Positions 1,058-37,747 of a DNA stretch of 37,747 bases are shown here, piece after piece (the stretch's first letter is position 1; every line of letters begins with the position of its first letter). Position numbers and translations under genes: made by a program. The notes under the pieces were generated by a model. The model searched no databases and was not told the origin of the DNA. It worked only from the letters and a program-made list of their open reading frames with translations. Source of the stretch: a virus; the IMG/VR virus record IMGVR_UViG_3300025093_001713, positions 1 to 37,747 of that record; one strand, given 5' to 3'.

Positions 1058-2821
1058 TCAATCGCCCATGACAATCCGGCCAGTGTTCCGGCCGGTCTGC
1101 CCTTCGAGTGGTTCGTTGTGTATTGCGTGGAACAGCGCCCATGCCAGATCGGCGTGGCCTGTTTCGTCGTTGCGCCCTGCGGTGTAGGTGAATTGCCGGC
1201 CGCTTTGCGTGGTGGTTTTGCGGATGGCCATCAGCGCCTGGGCGATATCGGTCCAGCCGGCGTCGAATTCGAGCCGGCCTTTGTTGATCACGTCGTATGC
1301 CTTGAGCACCAGGCGCGTTTTCACCTCTGGCGAATAGCTGAAGGTGGTCACGCCCGGGAAGAACTGCTTCACCAGCTGCGCCACGCCGCTACCCATGCCG
1401 GTCATGTCGATACCGATGTACGTGACCCAATAGCGCTTGGTGACGGCGCGTATCGCCTCGGCCTGTGCGGCGAAGTCCATGCCGCGGAACTGATGGCGCT
1501 CGAGCACGCGGAATTTGCCGCCCGCTACCGCCGGCGGCGCCACCACGATCAGGCCGGCGCTGTCACCGGTTTCTGCCGGGTCGTAGCCCACCCAGACCTG
1601 TTTGTCACCGAAGGGCCTGGTGGCGAAAGGTTTGAAGTCTTCTGCCCAGGCCTCCCAACTGTCGACCATGCACGGCTGCAGCATGGCCAGCGGGAATATG
1701 CTCGCGCCGTCGTCGACGAACTGGCACATCAGCAAGTTTTCGAATGCCTCGGCGCTGTATTCGTCGCGCAGCTCCTCGACGTCGAACAGATCGCATCCGC
1801 CGGCCTCGGCATCCAGGATGGTGACGATCTGCCGCCAGATCTTGTCCTCGCACAGCCGGCCCTGTTGCAGCACCTGGTGGCTGACGTCCATCTCGATCCG
1901 GTCTTTTTTCGCCCGCCGCTTGTTGAATCGCTCGCCGGTCCAGAAGGTATACGCCTCATGGGCCATTGAGCTGGGCGTGCTGAAGTAGGTTTTGCGGTAC
2001 TGCTTCTGCATCGCCATGCCGCTGGCCACCTTGTTCAGCTCCTCGAAGCGGAACGTCCAGAAGAACTCGTCGAAGTAGAAGTTGCCGTGGTAGCCCTGGG
2101 CTGTGCGGGCGTTGGTGCCGAGGAAGTAGATGTGCGCGCCGTTGGGTAGCACGATCGGGTCACCGGTGAGCTCCAGGCCGCAGGTCTCCCGCGCAAACTG
2201 CACGATGTATTGCTTGAACAGGTGCGCCTGGCTCTTCGAAGCAGACAGGAATATCTGGTTGCGGCCGGTCTCGATCGCGTCGATCAATGCTTCCCGGGCG
2301 AAGTAGAAAGTGGCGCCAATCTGGCGTGACTTGAGGATCGCCCTGGTGCGCTGCCCCCCGGCCATGTGCCAGTCTTTCTGGTAGTCGAACAGCGAATCGC
2401 GGAACGCCTCGAGCAGCTGCTCGGCCTGTTCTTCGCTGTATTCGTTGCGGGGCTTGCGCTTGCGATCGGCGGTGTTCCGGTTCGCCAATTTAGGGTTCAG
2501 ATCGGTCTCGGTACCGCCGTCCTGGTAGCGCTGGATCCGCGCCTGGCGCTCCAGTTGCCGGTGTAGCAGATCGATCTCTTTGAAGTCGCCGCTGGTCTTG
2601 CCATCTTTCAAAATCAGCTGTACAAGTCTGGCCTCGAGGGCCCCGCCAACCCGCTCAACGGAATCGGCGCGATCCCATTCATCACGCTTTTTCCAGCTGT
2701 GTACCGTCGGCTCTTTTTCGCCTATGTATTCAGCAATTTGAGTGATGCGCCAACCCTGCCAGTAGAGGAATTTCCCCAGCCGGCGCGGGTCCATCGATGT
2801 GCTATCAAGTGGGCTATTCAT
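1058..2821 (-). CDS. P: Terminase large (ATPase) subunit (P2 gpP-like)
   Basis: 587-aa ORF, close to the size of P2 gpP. It has the N-terminal LYWQGW..ITQIAEYIG..TVHSWKKRDEWD segment typical of gpP-type terminases and is divergent from the O-N-M-L operon. An internal Met at 2794 (MDPRRL...) is an alternative start. Confidence 0.9.
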   Translation of the reverse strand: MNSPLDSTSMDPRRLGKFLYWQGWRITQIAEYIGEKEPTVHSWKKRDEWDRADSVERVGGALEARLVQLILKDGKTSGDFKEIDLLHRQLERQARIQRYQDGGTETDLNPKLANRNTADRKRKPRNEYSEEQAEQLLEAFRDSLFDYQKDWHMAGGQRTRAILKSRQIGATFYFAREALIDAIETGRNQIFLSASKSQAHLFKQYIVQFARETCGLELTGDPIVLPNGAHIYFLGTNARTAQGYHGNFYFDEFFWTFRFEELNKVASGMAMQKQYRKTYFSTPSSMAHEAYTFWTGERFNKRRAKKDRIEMDVSHQVLQQGRLCEDKIWRQIVTILDAEAGGCDLFDVEELRDEYSAEAFENLLMCQFVDDGASIFPLAMLQPCMVDSWEAWAEDFKPFATRPFGDKQVWVGYDPAETGDSAGLIVVAPPAVAGGKFRVLERHQFRGMDFAAQAEAIRAVTKRYWVTYIGIDMTGMGSGVAQLVKQFFPGVTTFSYSPEVKTRLVLKAYDVINKGRLEFDAGWTDIAQALMAIRKTTTQSGRQFTYTAGRNDETGHADLAWALFHAIHNEPLEGQTGRNTGRIVMGD

Positions 2822-2868
2822 GCCCGCAATGATCCAGCCCGCCCCAGCTCCTTACCCGCCCGTCTCCT

Positions 2869-2887
2869 TGTAGCTTTCAGCGCTACA
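2869..2887. promoter_or_regulatory. Candidate Ogr-type late-promoter activator site (TGT-N13-ACA dyad)
   Basis: TGTAGCTTTCAGCGCTACA lies in the divergent P/O intergenic region. It sits inside a perfect 7-bp inverted repeat, TTGTAGC-N7-GCTACAA. The same TGT-N13-ACA pattern recurs upstream of V and FI. Confidence 0.55.
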
Positions 2888-2972
2888 AATGCGCCTCGTT
2901 GCCGCTCACGCGCCCACTGCCGACCATGCCCACATCACAGAGCGAATCAGCCGCCGCAAACAGATCTGAGGG

Positions 2973-3845
2973 ATGAGCATGAAATTCAAGTCCAAGTTTT
3001 TCCGTGTAGCAGTGGAAGGGATGACCACCGACGGCCGCAAGATCGAGCGCCAGTGGATCGAAGAGATGGCTTCCACCTACAACCGGACCAAATACGGCGC
3101 CCGGATCTGGATGGAGCACATGCGTGGCATGTTCGCCGATGGCCCGTTCAAGGCCTACGGCGATGTTCTGGCGGTCAAGGCTGAAGAGGTCGATATTGAC
3201 GGGCAAAAGAAGCTCGCCCTGTTCGCTCAGATCGAACCGACCGACGACCTGATCCTGATGAACAAGGCCAAGCAGAAGATCTACACCAGCATCGAGGTGC
3301 GCGAGAAGTTCGCCGATTCCGGCAAAGCGTATCTGATGGGCCTGGGCGTGACTGACTCCCCGGCCAGCCTGGGCACCGAAGTGCTGGAATTTGCAGCTAA
3401 TAATCCTGAAAAGAGCCCATTCAAGGGCAAGAAGGAAAACCCCGACAACCTGTTCACCGAGGCAGTAGAGGTGGAACTCGAATTCGAGGAGGTCGACGAG
3501 ACGCCCAGCATGACGCAAAAGCTGTTCAGCACCGTCAACGACCTGCTCGGCAAGAGCAAGGATAAGAACGTCAAGGATGACTCCCAATTTGCGGACATCC
3601 GCGAGGCAGTTACCGCGCTGGCCAAGCATGGCGCAGAGCAGGCCGACAAGTTCGCCCAGCTGCAGCAAGAGCACAGCACCACCAAGGATCAGTTCAAGGC
3701 CTTCACTCAGTTGAAGAGCGACTACGACAAGCTGGCCACCGACTTTGCCGAGCTGGTCGCACGGCTCGATAAAACCCCCAGCAAACAGCATCGTCAGCGC
3801 CCCGAGGCGACGGGCGGAGATGGGCAGGTCACCACCGACTGCTAA
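2973..3845 (+). CDS. O: Capsid scaffolding protein (P2 gpO-like)
   Basis: The N-terminus KFFRVAVEGMTTDGRKI...YGARIWMEHMRG and the segment PTDDLILMNKAKQKIYTSIEV follow the P2 gpO pattern. It occupies the first position of the rightward head operon. A second ATG at 2979 has the better GAGGGA spacing. Confidence 0.9.
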   Translation: MSMKFKSKFFRVAVEGMTTDGRKIERQWIEEMASTYNRTKYGARIWMEHMRGMFADGPFKAYGDVLAVKAEEVDIDGQKKLALFAQIEPTDDLILMNKAKQKIYTSIEVREKFADSGKAYLMGLGVTDSPASLGTEVLEFAANNPEKSPFKGKKENPDNLFTEAVEVELEFEEVDETPSMTQKLFSTVNDLLGKSKDKNVKDDSQFADIREAVTALAKHGAEQADKFAQLQQEHSTTKDQFKAFTQLKSDYDKLATDFAELVARLDKTPSKQHRQRPEATGGDGQVTTDC

Positions 3846-12393: not shown

Positions 12394-14217
12394 ATGGCAG
12401 ATCTGCCCTTGGACGAAGCGGTACAACGTTTTCTCAGTAATGAAAAGCGGGTGAATATTTTTATAAACTCACCATCAGGTGAGGAATCGTTTCAGACTAG
12501 CGAGGGCCAAACGATAGCTGTTCTACAGAAAATCGTAGAAGCTGCATTGCTATCAAATGGCATTTACCCGGATGTAGCAAGCGGAGTAGCCGCTCTTGCA
12601 GATGAGGAATATTTCAGTGTCCCCAGCTCCTCAGACGATGGATACCTCGATCTATTTCGACGATTCGGAACTACTGCTAATTATGTAAAAACCTACCCGT
12701 CACTAGAAGGCGCCTCTAATCCTGTAGCTTTTACCTATGGAGAGTCTTCACCAAGAGAAACGGGTGGAAAAGTAATAGCAGACTTAGAGCTTGATGACTT
12801 AGAAGTGTTGGTAGGAGGGCAAAATATAAGGATGCTCGATGCGGCCGGCAAAGTTTTCTTGGAATTAACGAGAGAGGCGGTAAAACTAAACAACCTCTCT
12901 ATTAAAAGCCTTCTCCAGGCTGCTGATATAGAAACTGATAGAATAGAAGGGCCCGATTGGTTTGATTTTCAATCATCGAATGTATCGGTTAGCTTAAAGC
13001 CGGGACGTAAAGCAGCGCTGGTTTTCGAGTCGCAAGGCGTGGAACTCCTGACTTTCGACACCGAAAATAATGTTGTGCATATTCTCGGCAATTCATCCAA
13101 TCCAAATCAAGAGGATGTCGAACCCGTTCCCGATCCACTTTATGTAGAGTCCGGTCCGTCATTGTACTTTGATACGACAGACCCGATTTTCACTGAGCGA
13201 GTTTTTCAGGGCATCCCATCTATCGCGCGGACTGGAAGCAGACTGTGGTGTTGCTGGTACGGCGATGATGACTTAAGCACTTCTGGTTTTGGTGAAGGTC
13301 CTGGTAACTTTGCAATCCTGGGCTATTCAGATGATAGCGGCGCTACTTGGGCTGAGCACGGATATATCAAGTTTCTGGATGACCCCGCGAAACGAGTGTT
13401 TGATATTCAGGCCTGGACTGATCCTGACGGCAAGTTGTGGGTTTTCTTTGCTGTGTGCGGCGGCAACTCTTTAATGGACGGTGTAGAAGGGGCCTGGGCT
13501 GTCAGTTGCAAGAATCCAGAGGGGGAAATTCCGAACTGGTCAACTCCATGGCGTCTGTCGTATTACGGCGTACCGATGCAGCCTGTAGTAATAAACGAGC
13601 AAGTTTATGTCCCGATTGACTATTGGGGCGGAAACGTCAGGCCCGGGGTTGTTGCGCAACGCCCTGATCTTGTCGGCAAGAGACTGTTCCGGCTCGATTA
13701 TCGTAATCGCAAAGCCGAGTACCACTCTACGTTGCCAGCCAACATTGCGGGCAACTCGTTTGACGAAACCAACTTAACACAGCTATTTGACGGGCGCTGG
13801 CTTGCCGCATACCGGACTACTGGGCCGACTGAGTATTCAATATCAGAAGACGACGGCAAAACCTGGACGGCGTCGCAGGTGTGGGCCGCCCTTGGCGACA
13901 ACCCTTCTTCGAGAGTATTTGTGGCAGCGACTCCAAGCGGCCGGCTTCTGGTTTGCTATAACGCGAGCGCCGTTAGAGATAAGTTGACTGTGGCGATATC
14001 GGAGGACGGCGGTGATAGTTTTCCATTCTCTGTATTAATTGATGCGAGAGGTTCAACGTCTTATCCGGGGGTAACCTTTGGTGAAAATGGAGAGATATAC
14101 GTAACTTACGATTACAACCGAACTTCGGATAAGATCGTCTACTGCGCGGTTGTTAACGAACCGGAAATTATCGCTGGGACTTCTGTTCCTCAACTCAACA
14201 TAGTGAGTGATAAGTAA
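12394..14217 (+). CDS. Tailspike-like protein with a BNR/Asp-box (sialidase-fold) beta-propeller domain; candidate depolymerase or receptor-binding protein
   Basis: 607 aa in an AT-rich insert between I and H. It has three Asp-box motifs (SDDSGATW, SEDDGKTW, SEDGGDSF) and a sialidase-like first-blade motif FQGIPSIARTGSRLW in which the Arg of the canonical RIP is replaced by Gly. GGAGAG RBS. Confidence 0.7.
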   Translation: MADLPLDEAVQRFLSNEKRVNIFINSPSGEESFQTSEGQTIAVLQKIVEAALLSNGIYPDVASGVAALADEEYFSVPSSSDDGYLDLFRRFGTTANYVKTYPSLEGASNPVAFTYGESSPRETGGKVIADLELDDLEVLVGGQNIRMLDAAGKVFLELTREAVKLNNLSIKSLLQAADIETDRIEGPDWFDFQSSNVSVSLKPGRKAALVFESQGVELLTFDTENNVVHILGNSSNPNQEDVEPVPDPLYVESGPSLYFDTTDPIFTERVFQGIPSIARTGSRLWCCWYGDDDLSTSGFGEGPGNFAILGYSDDSGATWAEHGYIKFLDDPAKRVFDIQAWTDPDGKLWVFFAVCGGNSLMDGVEGAWAVSCKNPEGEIPNWSTPWRLSYYGVPMQPVVINEQVYVPIDYWGGNVRPGVVAQRPDLVGKRLFRLDYRNRKAEYHSTLPANIAGNSFDETNLTQLFDGRWLAAYRTTGPTEYSISEDDGKTWTASQVWAALGDNPSSRVFVAATPSGRLLVCYNASAVRDKLTVAISEDGGDSFPFSVLIDARGSTSYPGVTFGENGEIYVTYDYNRTSDKIVYCAVVNEPEIIAGTSVPQLNIVSDK

Positions 14218-22029: not shown

Positions 22030-22461
22030 ATGATGATGGCCCTGGGGCTGTATGTGTTCGGCCTGGATACCGCCGCCTACCAGGACTTCCAGCGGCAAAC
22101 CAACTGGCGGCACCCCAGCAGCAACCGTGTGGGTGCTGCGCCGGTGCGCCAGTTTGTGGGCAAGGGTGAAGACACTATCACCCTGTCTGGCTTGATTCTG
22201 CCGGAGTTCAGCGGCAAGCGGCTGTCCCTCGACGCCCTGCGGCTGATGGCAGACACCGGCAAGGCCTGGCCCATGGTCGAGGGCACCGGCCGCATTTACG
22301 GGCTGTGGAGCATCGAGAGCATCAGCGAGAACAACACCCTGTTCTTCAGCGATGGCGCACCGCGGCGGATCGACTTCAGCATCACCCTGCAGCGCGAAGA
22401 CGACAGCCGCCTCGAGCTGCTCGGCAACCTGGCTGAAACCATAGGGAACATCCTCAGATGA
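22030..22461 (+). CDS. U: Tail protein U (P2 gpU-like)
   Basis: 143 aa. LG.YVF.L.TA.YQ...R...WRH....RVG..P..QF.G.G.D.ITL.G is the gpU pattern. Confidence 0.9.
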   Translation: MMMALGLYVFGLDTAAYQDFQRQTNWRHPSSNRVGAAPVRQFVGKGEDTITLSGLILPEFSGKRLSLDALRLMADTGKAWPMVEGTGRIYGLWSIESISENNTLFFSDGAPRRIDFSITLQREDDSRLELLGNLAETIGNILR

Positions 22462-23678
22462 TCGAGCAGCTCACCAGCCACACCGCGCCGGCGTTCCGCC
22501 TGGCCGTCGACGGCCGCGACATCACCCCCAAGGTCAACAACCGCCTGCTGCGCCTCACGCTCACAGACAACCGCGGCATCGAGGCCGACCAGCTCGATCT
22601 GACCCTGCACGACCACGACGGACTGCTCGCCATACCGCCGCGCCGCGCGGTGATCGACCTCTGGTTGGGCTGGCAGGGCAACGCCCTGGTGTACAAGGGC
22701 AGTTTCACCGTGGACGAGGTAGAGCATTCCGGCGCCCCGGATGTGCTTATGATCCGCGCCCGCAGCGCCGACATGCGCGCCGGCCTGACGCGCAAACGCG
22801 AGCGCAGCTGGCACCAGACCACCCTGGGCGAGATCATCGCCAGCGTGGCCGCAGCGTACAGCCTCATCCCGGTGGTCGATCGCGTGCTCGGCCAGATCCC
22901 GGTACCGCATCTGGACCAGGTGGACGAATCAGACGCCAACCTGCTCACCCGCCTGGGTACCGACCACGACGCGATCGCCACCGTAAAGGCCGGCCATCTG
23001 CTGCTGCTGCCCGTAGGGGCCAGCAAAACCGCCAGCGGGGTCAACCTGCCGCACATCACGCTCACCCGCCGCGACGGCGACAGCCACCGCTACCTGGTCG
23101 CCGATCGGGACGCCTACACCGGCGTGCGCGCCTACTACTACGACCCCAACAGCGCAGAACGGCTCGAGGCGATCATCGGCACCGAAGACAACATCAAAAC
23201 CCTGCGCCACGTGTATGCCAACGAGCAAAGCGCCCTGCAGGCTGCCCGGGCGGAATGGCGACGGCTGCAACGTGGCCTGGCTACCCTCAGCTACACCATC
23301 GCCCGCGGCCGGCCAGACCTTATCCCCGAGATGACCTTCAGCCTGGTCGGCATCAAGCAGCAGATCACCGAAGTGGTCTGGCTCTGCGCACGCCTCACCC
23401 ATGAGTTGAGCGACAGCGGCTACATCAACAGGCTGGAGCTAGAAAACCAATTGGCCGAAGACGAGGATCTGGCCGCGCTGGTAGAGGGCGGCTATACCGG
23501 CGTGCTGGCTTGGTACCGGGACAAAGACGGGGCCCAGAAGAAGATCACCCAGGGCGACCAGGCCAACCCCAAGCGGTTGACCCATCTGTATGCCAGTAAG
23601 GGGAGTGCGGAAAGGGCGGTGGAACGGGAGTTTGAGAGGTTGGAAGTGGGGCCCGGTGATTCGGCCCCTAATGCCTAG
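22458..23678 (+). CDS. D: Tail protein D / late control D (P2 gpD-like)
   Basis: 406 aa, the last gene of the tail operon, with its start coupled to the U stop. Confidence 0.9.
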   Translation: MIEQLTSHTAPAFRLAVDGRDITPKVNNRLLRLTLTDNRGIEADQLDLTLHDHDGLLAIPPRRAVIDLWLGWQGNALVYKGSFTVDEVEHSGAPDVLMIRARSADMRAGLTRKRERSWHQTTLGEIIASVAAAYSLIPVVDRVLGQIPVPHLDQVDESDANLLTRLGTDHDAIATVKAGHLLLLPVGASKTASGVNLPHITLTRRDGDSHRYLVADRDAYTGVRAYYYDPNSAERLEAIIGTEDNIKTLRHVYANEQSALQAARAEWRRLQRGLATLSYTIARGRPDLIPEMTFSLVGIKQQITEVVWLCARLTHELSDSGYINRLELENQLAEDEDLAALVEGGYTGVLAWYRDKDGAQKKITQGDQANPKRLTHLYASKGSAERAVEREFERLEVGPGDSAPNA

Positions 23679-23683
23679 GCAAT

Positions 23684-24865
23684 TTATTCTTTCGGTTTGG
23701 GAATAATACCCATTTTGCGTTGGAACTCCTCGAAAGGCTCCAGTCCCTTTGCCGCGTCCTTTATCAACTGATGATTGGGGTTAGCATCCAGGTTGCGGTG
23801 CATCTCGTTGAAAGGTTCCAATATTTTAGCCGCGTTCTTTATCAATTGTTGATTTGGAGGCTCTAGCAGTGATTTGAGATTGTCCGACATGGGTTGTAGC
23901 TTTAGAGCATTTTGAGTGGCCATTACCGAATCAAGCAAAGCCCTTGCATCACTGTTTAAAACTGGGCTGTTCTTGAGTTCATCTAGTTTGGCAGTTTTAG
24001 ACTCACCCCTTCTTGGCTGTTCAACTACTGCAGCGGCCTTGTTTCTTGGTTCGATCATGGCTTTCATCGCTTTATCGTAGAACAGTGATGCTGCCGCCAT
24101 CTCTCTGTCTGTGAAACCTAATCTGCGGGCTTCTTCCGACGCCTCGTCCATGGCCAATGAGATATTTCGCAGATACTGGTCATGCATCTCCTTGGTTAAC
24201 TTAATTATCAATCCCTTTTCCCGCGTTTTGAGTTCTTTGAGCTCGTTATTGCTTTGTTTTTTTAACTCGCCCTCCCGCTTGATAAAGTTATCTATTCTTT
24301 CTTGCAGCTCGCTTACTTCTAACCTGTGAACTTCCCCGTCTTTAGTTTTGTTCTCTCTGGCGACTTCGATCTGCTTTTGTGCGGCGTCCAGTTGTTCTTC
24401 AAGGTATTCGAACTTTTTATTAACGGAATTTAGCTGCCGATCCTTTGCATCAAGTTCAGCCTCCGACTCAGCGACCTTTCTATCCGCCTCGCGCCGGTTT
24501 TCACGGGCTTCCTCCCTTGACATAGGATTGGCATCAACGTGCTTGACGTAGTCTTCCTTCGCCTTCCGGATTTGCCAGCGCCAGTATTTCATCAGATAGC
24601 GGTTTGCAAAGGGGTAGCTAAAAACGAACGCCGCCGCGAAGATCCCTGGGTAGATAATGCCGAGCGTTATCCCATTCAGCCAGGGCGATTGCAGTGCGAA
24701 GTGGGCTTGTAAGACGGCCAGTTTATCTTCTACAGAGTTTGTAGAAAGCAGCCACAGAATCACCTTGTGATTCAACACCACCCAGGAAAGGATGAATGGC
24801 AGGAAAATGGGGTTGGTAACCCGCTCTGATATCTGCACCTTTACCGAATCCAATACTTCTCTCAT
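23684..24865 (-). CDS. Membrane-anchored coiled-coil protein of unknown function (cargo)
   Basis: 393 aa and AT-rich. It has two to three N-terminal hydrophobic helices (PIFLPFILSWVVL..., LGIIYPGIFAAAFVFSYPF), about 150 aa of E/K/R-rich heptad-like sequence, and a C-terminal tandem 26-aa repeat. A GAAAGGA RBS lies in the 12-nt gap after the upstream small gene. Confidence 0.75.
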   Translation of the reverse strand: MREVLDSVKVQISERVTNPIFLPFILSWVVLNHKVILWLLSTNSVEDKLAVLQAHFALQSPWLNGITLGIIYPGIFAAAFVFSYPFANRYLMKYWRWQIRKAKEDYVKHVDANPMSREEARENRREADRKVAESEAELDAKDRQLNSVNKKFEYLEEQLDAAQKQIEVARENKTKDGEVHRLEVSELQERIDNFIKREGELKKQSNNELKELKTREKGLIIKLTKEMHDQYLRNISLAMDEASEEARRLGFTDREMAAASLFYDKAMKAMIEPRNKAAAVVEQPRRGESKTAKLDELKNSPVLNSDARALLDSVMATQNALKLQPMSDNLKSLLEPPNQQLIKNAAKILEPFNEMHRNLDANPNHQLIKDAAKGLEPFEEFQRKMGIIPKPKE

Positions 24866-24877
24866 GTCGAATCCTTT

Positions 24878-25072
24878 CTATGGTTGATCTTGTTCAGGCT
24901 TAGACGTGGTCGCCTCGCCCGCGCTACTGGCGATAAAGGCAAAGCACGCGGCAAATCTCAACAGATCCGCCTGGTGCAAAGGGTGCATTCTTCGAAAATG
25001 CTGGATCAACAATGCTTCTTCATCGCTCAGCGGCTCTACGTTCGCGTTTCCTTCGAGTTGTTCGATAAACAT
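24878..25072 (-). CDS. Small soluble protein resembling the C-terminal tail of the adjacent XRE repressor (cargo)
   Basis: 64 aa from the ATG at 25072 (AGGAG 8 nt upstream). The track start at 25081 is a GTG lying inside that RBS. It aligns without gaps to the repressor C-terminus (see findings). Confidence 0.65.
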   Translation of the reverse strand: MFIEQLEGNANVEPLSDEEALLIQHFRRMHPLHQADLLRFAACFAFIASSAGEATTSKPEQDQP

Positions 25073-25199
25073 GCTTGCCACTCCTAATACGGCGCCGGTA
25101 CCGGACTGATACCTTCCTTCGCCAGGAGTTATCTATTTTCAACACATCACCGCGTGTCAGAAGCCGCCTAAACGTCTAATTTCAGCATTAACTCGACTG

Positions 25200-25583
25200 C
25201 TATTGGCAAAGCTCAAGCCCCTGATGGATTAGCGGCCCGACGCTGTACCTGGTACCTGGCAATTCAGGGTTCTCCAGCCAGATGTCATCGAGGGTATCCA
25301 TATCGCTCTGTGTGCGCGCTGGCCCGTTGAGCGGATAGGTATCACCCGTCACAACGTCAGCGACCACCACCGCATTCCTGCGGAGACATATCAGGTGCAT
25401 TTCCTCCATGCTGAATGGCCATTCCGGCCCATAGCTCTCGGCGCTGATTAGCACAATATTGGGCGCCTTAGGTGGAGTGGGGGCTGCGGGGAGCTGCTCA
25501 ATATCATTGGCATCTGGCGCATCGCCACAAGCAGACAATAGAGCTGCAGCAAAAGTCGCAATAAGTGCATGTCGAAATTCCAT
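25200..25583 (-). CDS. Lipoprotein, DUF2511/YebY-like (cargo)
   Basis: 127 aa with a signal peptide and lipobox LSAC (Cys19). The segment W.F..EE..L.C......V......YPLN...A......I....P......PLI.....LC matches my recollection of E. coli YebY. An AAGGAAAA RBS lies in the 41-nt gap after the repressor gene. Confidence 0.7.
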   Translation of the reverse strand: MEFRHALIATFAAALLSACGDAPDANDIEQLPAAPTPPKAPNIVLISAESYGPEWPFSMEEMHLICLRRNAVVVADVVTGDTYPLNGPARTQSDMDTLDDIWLENPELPGTRYSVGPLIHQGLELCQ

Positions 25584-25624
25584 CTCGTGTTTTCCTTTTT
25601 GATTGGGTTTATTGCCGGGCCAGA

Positions 25625-25975
25625 TCAGCCCTCTTTTGACACTCCATACACAGCAGCCGTCTCGGCCAGGGCGGTGGTGAGGCGCTCAACGGCAGCCTGA
25701 TCAGGGGCGGGAAGTTTGCGGTAGTGGTCTAGCACTGATGCCTCTTCCTCTGTGAGCGATCCCTCCAAAGCAGGCGTTCTGCGGCCAGTTAGAACGTAGA
25801 GCACATCGACGCCATTCTCTGCGATTGCGGCAAGGTAGGGCGCGTCGGGGTGCCTGGAACCCTTCTCATAATTCAGCTGAGTGGTTTTCGTCACCCCGCC
25901 AAGAGCGCCGAAATCTTCTTGATTGAAGCCCAGCCTCCGGCGCTCTTCTTTCAGTCTTTCGCCGAAGTTCAACAA
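25625..25975 (-). CDS. Prophage repressor, XRE-family HTH (CI/C-like)
   Basis: HTH_XRE core FGERLKEERRRLGFNQEDFGALGGVTKTTQLNYEKGSRHPDAPYLAAIAENGVDVLYVLTG. It is divergent from a Cro/Ner-like gene. There is no in-frame ATG, so the probable start is a TTG at 25975 (or 25972) about 10 nt after AGGAA. The 214-aa track ORF upstream of this point is antisense to the cro-like gene and is rejected. Confidence 0.8.
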   Translation of the reverse strand: MLNFGERLKEERRRLGFNQEDFGALGGVTKTTQLNYEKGSRHPDAPYLAAIAENGVDVLYVLTGRRTPALEGSLTEEEASVLDHYRKLPAPDQAAVERLTTALAETAAVYGVSKEG

Positions 25976-25992
25976 ATGGGCACCATTTCCTG

Positions 25993-26022
25993 TTGACAGT
26001 TCAACGAATGTTGAACTAATCT
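25993..26022 (+). promoter_or_regulatory. Putative early (lytic) promoter
   Basis: -35 TTGACA (25993-25998), an 18-nt spacer, and -10 TAATCT (26017-26022). It lies about 30 nt upstream of the cro-like ATG. Confidence 0.5.
25999..26016. promoter_or_regulatory. Operator: inverted repeat GTTCAAC-N4-GTTGAAC
   Basis: Perfect 7-bp arms fill the -35/-10 spacer of the putative lytic promoter. Further half-sites occur at 25967-25973 (GTTCAAC, overlapping the repressor start codon) and 26031-26036 (TTGAAC), with a degenerate copy at 25992-25997 (GTTGAC). Confidence 0.6.
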
Positions 26023-26053: not shown

Positions 26054-26296
26054 ATGACTATGCCAAACCTCAGAACCCCAGAGCAAGCGCGCGAATGGCT
26101 GGATCAGCAGGGCAAATCCGTGACTGAGTTCGCCGCCGAACATGATCTCGACCTGCACACCACCTACCAGGTGCTCTCCGGCGCCAAGAAAGGCAAACGG
26201 GGCGAGGCGCACAAAGCTGCCGTCGCACTGGGCATCAAGCAGGGCGAAGTACCCCTGCCGCCGTTTCAACCTGTACCCGCTCAGATCAGCCAGTAA
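26054..26296 (+). CDS. Cro/Ner-like DNA-binding protein (BcepMu gp16-like family)
   Basis: 80 aa, the first gene of the rightward early operon. RTPEQAREWLDQQGKSVTEFAAEHDLDLHTTYQVLSG..KG.RGEAHKAAVALGIK fits the small HTH family I recall as phage-associated BcepMu gp16. Confidence 0.75.
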   Translation: MTMPNLRTPEQAREWLDQQGKSVTEFAAEHDLDLHTTYQVLSGAKKGKRGEAHKAAVALGIKQGEVPLPPFQPVPAQISQ

Positions 26297-34694: not shown

Positions 34695-36309
<1,615 letters not shown>

Positions 36310-36553: not shown

Positions 36554-37747
36554 GTGGAGTCCAAGGTGACCAAAGCAACAGACACCTATGCCCTGTCTGC
36601 CTGGCGTGGCGAATTTGTTTTTAAAGAGACCGAGCAGGCCTATCGTGAGCACGTCAAGGAGGAAACCGCCCGCCACCTGATAGTGGCCCTGCGTGTATGG
36701 GCAGGATTGCTGGTCACCTTCGGCTGGTTGGATTATATCGCCCTGGGCATGAGCGAAGGCTTTTATCACCTGATGGGTATGCGGTTGTTTTCCGCGACCA
36801 TGGTGCTGATCTTCTCCGCGGTGATCAAGTATCGTCCCGGGCTGGCCCGTGACGGTGTTGGTGTGACCATCATCGAGGTGCTCGGCTTCTTCCTCTTCTT
36901 TATGATCTATTTCGTACGGCCGGACATCACCACCTGGAATATAGGGGTCACGGTCATTCTGCTGATCAGTATCTATATTTTCGTTCCCAACCGGATCGTC
37001 AATTCCAACCTGGTATCACTGTTCGGGATCCTCGGGACTCTCTACTGTGTTGCTCTGAACGGAGCCGAGCCCAGACTCCTGATAGGCCTGTTCTTCCTGC
37101 TCGGCCTGCCTACGACTATCGGTTACTTTGCCGGTGTCAGACTTAACCTGGGCAAGCGTCATCAATATGCCCTGTTCATGGAAACAGTGCAGGTCAACCA
37201 GTCCCTGCAGGCGGAGATCAAGCGCCGTGAAGCGCTCGAAGTCGAGCTCAAGCTTCAGGCGACCACCGATCCGCTGACCGGGCTGCTCAATCGCCGGCAA
37301 TACGAAAACCTGTTCTCCCGTGAGCAGGAGCGGGTAAAGCGCCATGGCAGCAAGCTGTCACTGTGCGTTGCCGATCTGGACCATTTCAAGAGGGTCAATG
37401 ACGAGCATGGTCACGACGCCGGTGACCAGGTGCTCAAGCACATTTCCGATCTTTTCGTGGACACGCTCCGGCATACGGACATCGTCGGGCGCTTTGGTGG
37501 CGAGGAGTTTATCCTGCTGTTGCCTGATACCGATCTCGACAATGCGCTGACGGTCATCAGCCGGCTGCGCGAGAAGCTGCAGGCCAGCCCGGTGAATGTG
37601 GGAGACAAGGTGCTCCAGGTTACCGCGACTTTTGCGGTCACGGAGGTGGTAGCAGAGGATGCCACCATCGAGGACGTGATTCGTCGCGCCGACAAGGCGC
37701 TCTACCAGGGCAAGGAGGCAGGCCGGAACCAGGTGGTGGCGAGCTGA
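36554..37747 (+). CDS. Membrane-bound diguanylate cyclase (GGDEF domain), host gene
   Basis: The N-terminal ~200 aa contain about six hydrophobic helices. The C-terminus has a GGDEF domain with the active-site motif GGEEF and an RxxD I-site (RHTD) five residues upstream. The start is a GTG at 36554 or at 36566; the latter has a GGTGGAG RBS. Confidence 0.88.
   Translation: MESKVTKATDTYALSAWRGEFVFKETEQAYREHVKEETARHLIVALRVWAGLLVTFGWLDYIALGMSEGFYHLMGMRLFSATMVLIFSAVIKYRPGLARDGVGVTIIEVLGFFLFFMIYFVRPDITTWNIGVTVILLISIYIFVPNRIVNSNLVSLFGILGTLYCVALNGAEPRLLIGLFFLLGLPTTIGYFAGVRLNLGKRHQYALFMETVQVNQSLQAEIKRREALEVELKLQATTDPLTGLLNRRQYENLFSREQERVKRHGSKLSLCVADLDHFKRVNDEHGHDAGDQVLKHISDLFVDTLRHTDIVGRFGGEEFILLLPDTDLDNALTVISRLREKLQASPVNVGDKVLQVTATFAVTEVVAEDATIEDVIRRADKALYQGKEAGRNQVVAS

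Follow-up and report, generated by a model that had tools for sequence, protein, structure and literature searches.

Among phage-encoded envelope proteins, P22 SieA and HK97 gp15 are established prophage exclusion proteins of the inner membrane or periplasm (PMC10883804), and Glo of the P2-related Vibrio phage K139 is the periplasmic product of an “immunity gene” (PMC4870250). The DUF2511 domain is known from Escherichia coli YebY, a periplasmic protein of a copC/copD-type operon that is linked to copper delivery and contains a strictly conserved pair of cysteines (Cys48 and Cys113) forming a stabilizing disulfide, and from MlbQ of Microbispora, a lantibiotic-binding lipoprotein with an unstructured linker that is encoded in a lantibiotic gene cluster (PMC8689200). 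In P2, according to the available portions of two published accounts, defense hotspots are located at gpA-gpQ (old/tin), int-att, int-primase, and a tail-gene locus (PMC9122126, PMC13586616). Here, we analyze a three-gene cassette in IMG/VR virus record IMGVR_UViG_3300025093_001713, which is a complete P2-like prophage (positions 1 to 37,747; this whole stretch of 37,747 nucleotides, nt, is referred to as the window). The cassette (positions 23,684–25,583) is located between tail gene D, up to which the capsid and tail genes extend, and the immunity switch, and encodes a lipoprotein, a small helical protein, and a membrane protein of 393 amino acids (aa). The comparisons described below indicate that this cassette is composed of two independent passenger modules rather than a single system. 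Arguing by analogy, we put at about 0.5 the probability that both are lysogen-expressed envelope modules with a role in superinfection exclusion or abortive defense.

The three open reading frames (ORFs), the coordinates of which are those given in an earlier note on this DNA, and two of the spacers are as follows:

23684–24865, minus strand: ORF encoding the 393-aa inner-membrane protein
24878–25072, minus strand: small ORF, 64 aa from an ATG (24878–25081, 67 aa, if started from a GTG)
25073–25199, minus strand: 127-nt spacer between the lipoprotein stop and the small-gene ATG, containing CCGGTACCGG at 25095–25104 and AGGAG
25200–25583, minus strand: ORF encoding the 127-aa lipoprotein
25584–25624, minus strand: spacer of 41 nt from the stop of the repressor gene to the lipoprotein ATG, in which AAGGAAAA is the ribosome-binding site

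For the small gene, we prefer a start from the ATG at 25072; AGGAG precedes it by 8 nt, and JGI called the same start. The small-gene stop is separated from the ATG of the large gene by 12 nt, with the sequence AAAGGATTCGAC, and 5 nt lie between the large-gene stop and the convergent D stop; these gaps, the 41-nt gap, and the ribosome-binding sites agree with those described previously. An identical lipoprotein-small-large order, with proteins that are 81–89% identical overall (81% for the small protein), is present in a second metagenome, on scaffold L017. Against L017, the small gene has a ratio of nonsynonymous to synonymous differences per site (pN/pS) of 0.40 and the lipoprotein gene one of 0.20, values indicative of purifying selection, so both genes are real. 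A run of N in the L017 scaffold shifts the alignment, making pN/pS invalid for the 5′ part of the large gene.

The lipoprotein is recognizable: it matches the Pfam family DUF2511 (PF10709) with 54.5 bits against a cut-off of 21 (E-value 1.6e-14; profile positions 2–87 of 87) and phrog_2950 at 1e-20, and it aligns end to end with the E. coli YebY chain PDB 7N0J (1.4e-6). The protein consists of a signal peptide, a Pro-rich linker (residues 20–42), and the DUF2511/YebY domain (residues 46–126); the export signal, a hydrophobic stretch at the N-terminus that closes with the lipobox LLSAC, can be read straight from the sequence. The two YebY cysteines have their counterparts in C66 and C126, which do not vary among the phage homologs. 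The window protein thus resembles MlbQ in being a lipoprotein and YebY in its whole-chain alignment and conserved disulfide cysteines, but neither of these proteins is phage-borne, and the copper and lantibiotic-cluster contexts are both absent here. A tblastn search detected DUF2511 also in phages PSP3 (gp28), SW9, SI22, SEN1, Midge, RCIP0057, and 613R3, in all of which it is found after cI without the other two genes; in PSP3, SW9/SI22, and RCIP0057, the gene starts 8 nt past cI and is followed by int. Given this location directly behind cI in several 186-like phages, DUF2511 is a recurrent feature of such phages, and the window lipoprotein is a new member of a known arrangement. The earlier note saw no equivalent of the cassette in the gene order of P2, which is right for P2 itself but not for these PSP3-type relatives. 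Like the window protein, proteins of the PSP3 gp28 (orf28) group, which show 31–37% identity to it, have both cysteines of the domain and an export signal and are encoded on the same strand after the repressor. In the enterobacterial phages, the protein is exported by an ordinary signal peptide and is soluble in the periplasm, whereas the window version has a lipid anchor and the Pro-rich linker; furthermore, int, which follows the DUF2511 gene in PSP3-type phages, is located at the opposite prophage end in the window.

The 393-aa protein matches phrog_4780 (2.4e-14). AlphaFold2 modeling predicted an N-terminal amphipathic helix, membrane helix 1 (residues ~21–39, with the invariant N32), a short periplasmic helix, membrane helix 2 (~61–85), which continues as a basic cytoplasmic helix to residue 112 and is followed by a conserved NP break, and a continuous Glu/Lys/Leu-rich helix of ~130 residues (117–248), which we take to be a putative coiled coil. 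The predicted local distance difference test score (pLDDT) is above 90 for residues 1–170; the C-terminus is modeled as helical with low confidence (pLDDT 35–66 at 271–393 and <50 at 274–293 and 320–343) and contains two 25-aa repeats at 336–386. Hydropathy peaks at residues 19–42 and 62–87 and a charge of +4 after the second helix predict, under the positive-inside rule, that both termini are cytoplasmic.

A HMMER profile search with this protein retrieved 1256 representative clusters at E ≤ 1e-3, of which 351 remain at E ≤ 1e-10. Every match aligns from residue ~1 to about 150–200, and most members are 250–300 aa long. We denoted this family 2TM-coiled-coil (two transmembrane helices; phrog_4780 and relatives) and defined it by the N-terminal ~150 residues, with a signature that consists of an amphipathic helix, helix 1 with S-W-x3-N, helix 2 ending in Y-P, a basic helix, and a (D/N)-(T/N)-P break, all of which are found in the window protein. 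In an alignment of 150 sequences, N32, P73, and P85 are invariant, and R15, P19, F24, S27, W28, and S41 are at least 90% conserved. Most family members end in a winged helix. In the typical member P0032, this domain is of the MarR/ArsR type (Foldseek probability 1.00; rmsd, root mean square deviation, of 2–3 Å over 70–80 columns in winged-helix-only alignments with MarR/ArsR regulators). The window protein lacks the winged helix and has a longer coil and helical repeats in its place. Because the N-terminus is shared and the C-termini differ, the N-terminal domain is the constant part of the family and the C-terminus is the variable part.

The family came to light with the full HMMER scan alone. 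A word-index protein search yielded two matches for the large protein (itself and one 45%-identical protein) and two for the small protein. No relatives were found by tblastn of the 393-aa protein against phage records, by a genome scan with the alignment of its close relatives, or by a PDB sequence search; Foldseek comparison of the model to PDB and BFVD gave nothing better than E 0.87, and Pfam and NCBIfam contained no match at E ≤ 1 beyond noise. For 51 family members, Pfam, NCBIfam, and PADLOC returned coiled-coil noise only (SMC, LmuB, JetC, LETM1), and the SieB (PF14163) and SLATT 2TM effector domains were absent among the best 25 of the 42 Pfam families that were hit. The E. coli member is labeled “hypothetical protein” in RefSeq. 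The family is undescribed and is named in none of the libraries searched.

We examined 52 loci of typical family members (48 genomic and 4 viral), drawn from a broad range of proteobacterial and campylobacterotal lineages. In lambdoid phages, the family gene is an insert of opposite orientation: E. coli phage EC.W1-9 has it between terL and the portal gene, and Klebsiella phage KO-TP1 has it in the nin region; these are classic positions for independently transcribed phage passengers (“morons”). In a Thiodiazotropha symbiont, the gene belongs to an island of the integrase/primase type with integrase, HTH_17, and DUF3987 genes; another member adjoins a PhdYeFM/PIN pair, and others are encoded on Leptospira and E. 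coli plasmids. The guanine plus cytosine (G+C) content of the family gene is below that of its neighbors at every one of 50 loci, with a mean difference of 12.8 points, and G+C at third codon positions (GC3) is lower in 49/50, by 18 points. No conserved neighbor was detected, with no Pfam family represented in more than 2 of 150 neighboring genes from roughly 40 of the 52 loci. A minority of the neighbors are mobile-element or defense genes, encoding integrase, resolvase, capsid, terminase, and HsdR N-terminal domains; PARIS AriA is a neighbor twice (6.5e-61), and the candidate-system models PDC-M30B, PDC-M41B, and PDC-S01 were matched as well. In view of the low G+C, the varied settings, and the lack of a conserved partner, the family appears to be a laterally moving single-gene islet, a mode of occurrence that is compatible with defense and does not prove it. 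At locus L007, P0003, the closest large-protein homolog of 306 aa, is encoded downstream of a 549-aa P-loop protein (1689–3338) that weakly resembles STAND NTPase models and the PADLOC candidate PDC-M28C, which suggests a setting like that of a defense island.

The comparison of the D-to-repressor slot across related prophages that the earlier note had proposed showed a variable cargo hotspot. The borders of the slot and its contents in the window and in related marine P2-like phages are as follows:

22458–23678, plus strand: tail gene D (baseplate hub; PF05954, Phage_GPD, 6.1e-12), convergent with the cargo
25625–25975, minus strand: XRE-type (helix-turn-helix) prophage repressor (HTH_3, 3.2e-6; HTH_31, 3.4e-6; phrog_8, 6.7e-15)
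Window and L017: DUF2511 lipoprotein, small protein, large protein
L070–L072: 49-aa ORF and an unrelated 148-aa lipoprotein
L073: 49-aa ORF, 105-aa secreted protein, BRCT protein
L006: small ORF, zinc-ribbon membrane protein, Cys-rich secreted protein, BRCT protein, then a large-protein homolog (169 aa, next to D); also a 94-aa ORF; no DUF2511

The related phages L006 and L070–L073 share the order repressor, small ORF, differing cargo, and D, which is the fixed right-hand border of the slot, with the same border in L006 and L070–L072. Because the same borders enclose different contents, the slot is a variable cargo site and the cassette is composite; exported proteins are favored there. BRCT proteins of 215–220 aa occupy the slot twice (L006, 4449–5111, and L073, 1281–1928), and the one from L006 matches the PADLOC candidate PDC-S48 weakly and in part. 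As in the P2 defense hotspots, to the extent that these are covered in the available parts of the sources, a fixed pair of core genes brackets fast-exchanged accessory genes of foreign composition (PMC9122126, PMC13586616). The D-to-repressor slot is not among the four E. coli P2 hotspots in the accessible portion of the 2026 survey (PMC13586616). In P2 itself, ogr and int occupy the corresponding position. No catalogued defense system is matched by any of the cargo.

The notion that the three genes constitute one system, put forward in the earlier note, was not supported by these comparisons: in PSP3-type phages, DUF2511 stands alone after cI, L006 encodes a large-protein homolog without DUF2511, and the large-protein family consists of single genes without a conserved neighbor. 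We therefore regard the lipoprotein as one likely module and the small and large proteins as the other.

Composition and orientation identify the cargo as foreign passengers. G+C is 0.47 in the large gene, 0.51 in the small gene, 0.555 in the lipoprotein gene, and 0.578 in the repressor gene, compared with 0.658 in D and 0.604 in the window; GC3 is 0.54–0.57 (0.54 in the large gene) vs 0.85 in D. The G+C counts of 22 and 37 reported previously for two 60-nt lines are exact, and the drop in G+C and GC3, together with the strand, supports the earlier description of passenger cargo of foreign composition oriented with repressor transcription. A megablast search of the whole region against 50,697 phage records found nothing.

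Pattern scans of the four gaps showed no terminator-like site, and scans of the spacers showed no sigma-70 promoter match; the 127-nt spacer has no Rfam match and no stable fold (z-score −0.26). As these scans were empty, an intrinsic terminator, a sigma-70 promoter, a structured RNA, and an Rfam family in the spacers were all rejected. The shared strand, the 41-nt gap, the lack of a terminator-like site, and the position of DUF2511 between cI and int in PSP3 are consistent with transcription from the repressor promoter. From position and analogy, expression of the cargo in the lysogen is plausible, as is an exclusion or defense role. The 41-nt spacer is identical to its L017 counterpart at 38/41 positions, and the 127-nt spacer (25073–25199 vs L017 545–672) is 93.8% identical, which exceeds the 69% and 85% identity at third codon positions in the genes on either side. 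The 127-nt spacer may possibly contain a constrained non-coding element. The palindrome CCGGTACCGG pointed out in the earlier note is present at 25095–25104 but is unremarkable in itself because the window contains 81 perfect palindromes of 10 base pairs (bp), and on this frequency it was rejected as a special site. No LexA box was found near the small gene; the sole CTGT-N8-ACAG in the window is at 37172, distant from the cassette. Two elements occupy 23648–23681, downstream of the 393-aa gene: a G+C-rich hairpin, GGGGCC-N9-GGCCCC, just inside the 3′ end of D, and a 10-bp palindrome, TGCCTAGGCA, which extends from the last D codons across the D stop into the 5-nt gap before the 393-aa gene. 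With no U tract on either strand, these elements are not a canonical bidirectional terminator.

The 64-aa helical protein contains the motif LSDEEALLIQHFRRMHPLHQADLLRF, after which come a helix of hydrophobic character and a tail that is acidic. A general form of the motif, L[ST]xxExxL[LIV]xx[FY]R[RKQ][LM]xxxxQxxxxR, is shared by this protein and the end of the prophage’s own repressor, the C-terminal ~35 residues of which bear LTEEEASVLDHYRKLPAPDQAAVERL. Pairwise BLASTP of the small protein and the repressor tail gave E 2e-5 over 38 residues, and with a hidden Markov model (HMM) built from small proteins only, the tails of the repressors from five phages were detected among 17,299 fragments (E 4e-4 to 0.013). 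The small ORF of L006 gave no BLASTP alignment to the L006 repressor, and the HMMs of the window-type and 49-aa-type small ORFs cross-detect only marginally (E 0.02–0.2). We consider the 64-aa protein as a repressor-tail mimic to be a lead, of marginal significance. The SinI/SinR pair of Bacillus subtilis offers a parallel, in which a helical segment is common to a small protein and the C-terminal region of an XRE-type repressor, so that the two could pair. To our knowledge, the 64-aa protein has no sequence relationship to the Sin domain; unlike in SinI/SinR, the likeness here comes down to a motif of ~30 residues with marginal significance, and the pairing is a candidate.

Motif-bearing ORFs (...HQTDLLRF... 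and ...KADMLRF...) are present directly upstream of the next-closest large-protein homologs, at L003 and L007, the one at L007 with an in-frame stop. An HMM search found no motif-bearing small ORF upstream of distant family members. Given this result and the absence of a recurrent Pfam neighbor, a conserved partner gene for the family was rejected. An ORF of 49 aa is located right after the XRE repressor gene in L006 (3312–3497), L070 (7001–7150), L071 (5279–5428), L072 (6380–6529), and L073 (723–872). It follows the pattern MEYQENPQ...LSAxExALLxGFRxLDEQAxQDVxRxVxALLGLPA, carries the repressor-tail motif, and is named by no library.

In the mechanism that we consider most probable, the slot would lie at the 3′ end of the repressor (lysogeny) transcription unit, and the cargo would be co-transcribed with the repressor by read-through. 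In the first module, the lipid-anchored DUF2511/YebY domain would bind an envelope target and, expressed in the lysogen, could act in protection or exclusion at the surface or in the periplasm. In the second module, the conserved two-helix membrane domain of the 393-aa protein would be the acting part, as a membrane effector or an inner-membrane block, and the variable C-terminus of the family might set specificity or act as a sensor; the 64-aa protein could be a local regulator or partner. Glo, SieA, gp15, and T5 Llp are small envelope proteins with which phages block their relatives; most of them are prophage-made, and T5 Llp is made early in lytic infection. Like these four proteins, the cargo consists of phage-encoded envelope proteins, a resemblance of position and logic only, and searches of Pfam, PHROGs, and PADLOC revealed no sequence or fold similarity of the cargo to any of them. 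The 393-aa protein is also far larger than all four and has a long cytoplasmic predicted coiled coil.

A more ambitious version of the second module, which we regard as doubtful, is that the 393-aa protein stands for a large and so far undescribed family whose members are membrane effectors, each encoded by a single gene on a prophage, satellite, or plasmid. The two-helix domain would then kill or seal the membrane when a swappable C-terminal sensor, the winged helix in most members and the helical repeats in the window protein, detects an invading phage. The 64-aa repressor-tail mimic would couple the effector to the repressor state such that the resident phage is spared and the effector is armed only in the stable lysogen.

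Several results weigh against an exclusion or defense role. In agreement with the earlier note, which recognized no described defense family in its two unknown proteins and proposed this search, PADLOC-DB v2.0.0 contains no match for the 64-aa protein or the lipoprotein and only coiled-coil noise to LmuB for the 393-aa protein (E 0.011–0.32). For both families, the function is a putative one. The tie of YebY is to copper handling rather than to phages (PMC8689200), the winged-helix C-terminus of typical 2TM-coiled-coil members would suit a role in regulation or DNA tethering as well, and most neighbors of family genes are not defense genes, several being housekeeping genes. Only the closest relatives (L003, L007, and L017) have the small gene linked to the large one, and in L006, the motif-bearing small ORF adjoins the repressor, three genes away from the large-protein homolog. 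In addition, the low G+C of the large gene is due in part to its Lys/Glu/Asn-rich coil.

Of the competing explanations, the one that survives best, although we consider it unlikely, is lysogenic-conversion cargo that benefits the host in ways unrelated to phages, with DUF2511 binding a peptide or metal and the membrane protein acting as a tethered regulator or scaffold. The binding of a lantibiotic by MlbQ and the link of YebY to copper delivery (PMC8689200) fit this explanation, as do the MarR/ArsR-type winged helix of typical members, a fold shared by many transcription regulators, and the many family loci that are small chromosomal islets next to housekeeping genes. However, the window protein has no winged helix, the family is also found in temperate phages, a satellite-like island, and plasmids and beside toxin-antitoxin and defense genes, and envelope proteins encoded right behind a repressor gene have precedents in exclusion (PMC4870250, PMC10883804).

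A role in the phage’s own life cycle appears less probable still. Here, the 64-aa protein would modulate the repressor by tail mimicry, as in SinI/SinR, and the membrane protein would function in lysis-lysogeny, induction, or DNA handling. This proposal draws on the BLASTP and HMM similarity between the small protein and the repressor tails, the unusual conservation of the spacer upstream of the small gene, and the retention of the motif-bearing 49-aa ORF directly after the repressor in L006 and L070–L073. The tail similarity is nevertheless short and marginal, as is the cross-detection of the small ORFs, and it does not extend to a BLASTP alignment of the L006 small ORF with the L006 repressor; moreover, the relatives of the large protein are mostly found outside phage regulatory regions, and an anti-repressor co-transcribed with the repressor would need an extra layer of control, of which none is visible.

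Least likely of all is an integrated exclusion or defense system in which the lipoprotein, the 64-aa protein, and the 393-aa protein work only as a set: the three genes are tightly spaced on one strand and recur in L017 in the same order, but L017 is a close relative of the same prophage, DUF2511 and the L006 large-protein homolog each occur without the other, the small-plus-large pair follows different upstream genes at L003 and L007, and distant members of the large-protein family have no conserved neighbor. The reading that we favor remains one of two independent envelope modules that are expressed in the lysogen and probably serve in exclusion or abortive defense.

Several features outside the cassette were observed. 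The ORF called mechanically for the repressor encodes 214 aa from a TTG at 26269 and overlaps the cro-like gene; the true start is probably the TTG at 25975, which yields a protein of 116 aa, with orthologs of 117 aa in L006 and L070–L073. The immunity switch lies between the repressor gene and the cro-like gene (26054–26296) and contains three AGTTCAAC half-sites at 25966–26017, two of which form the palindrome AGTTCAAC-GAAT-GTTGAACT and one of which overlaps the probable TTG start of the repressor; these repeats are likely to be operators. At the far prophage end, a tRNA-Met gene (36233–36309, minus strand) overlaps the end of the mechanically called integrase ORF (34695–36254), a probable attachment site and prophage border. 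A second patch of low G+C (0.44–0.51 per 500 nt), at 12394–14217 and on to 15344, includes the first tail-fiber gene (G+C 0.486, GC3 0.46), which encodes a BNR/sialidase-like domain (PF13088, 1.4e-14), suggestive of a separately acquired receptor-binding module.

Prophage accessory genes are a proven source of new anti-phage mechanisms, and in marine P2-like phages, a fixed slot between D and the repressor collects envelope-directed proteins. If no cargo gene affects phages, this region would be ordinary lysogenic-conversion cargo. The 2TM-coiled-coil family comprises at least 1256 sequence clusters that are named by no library searched and are spread over Proteobacteria and Campylobacterota. 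DUF2511 has been seen behind cI in PSP3-type phages for two decades, and a phenotype for a phage copy would also inform the role of the chromosomal YebY.

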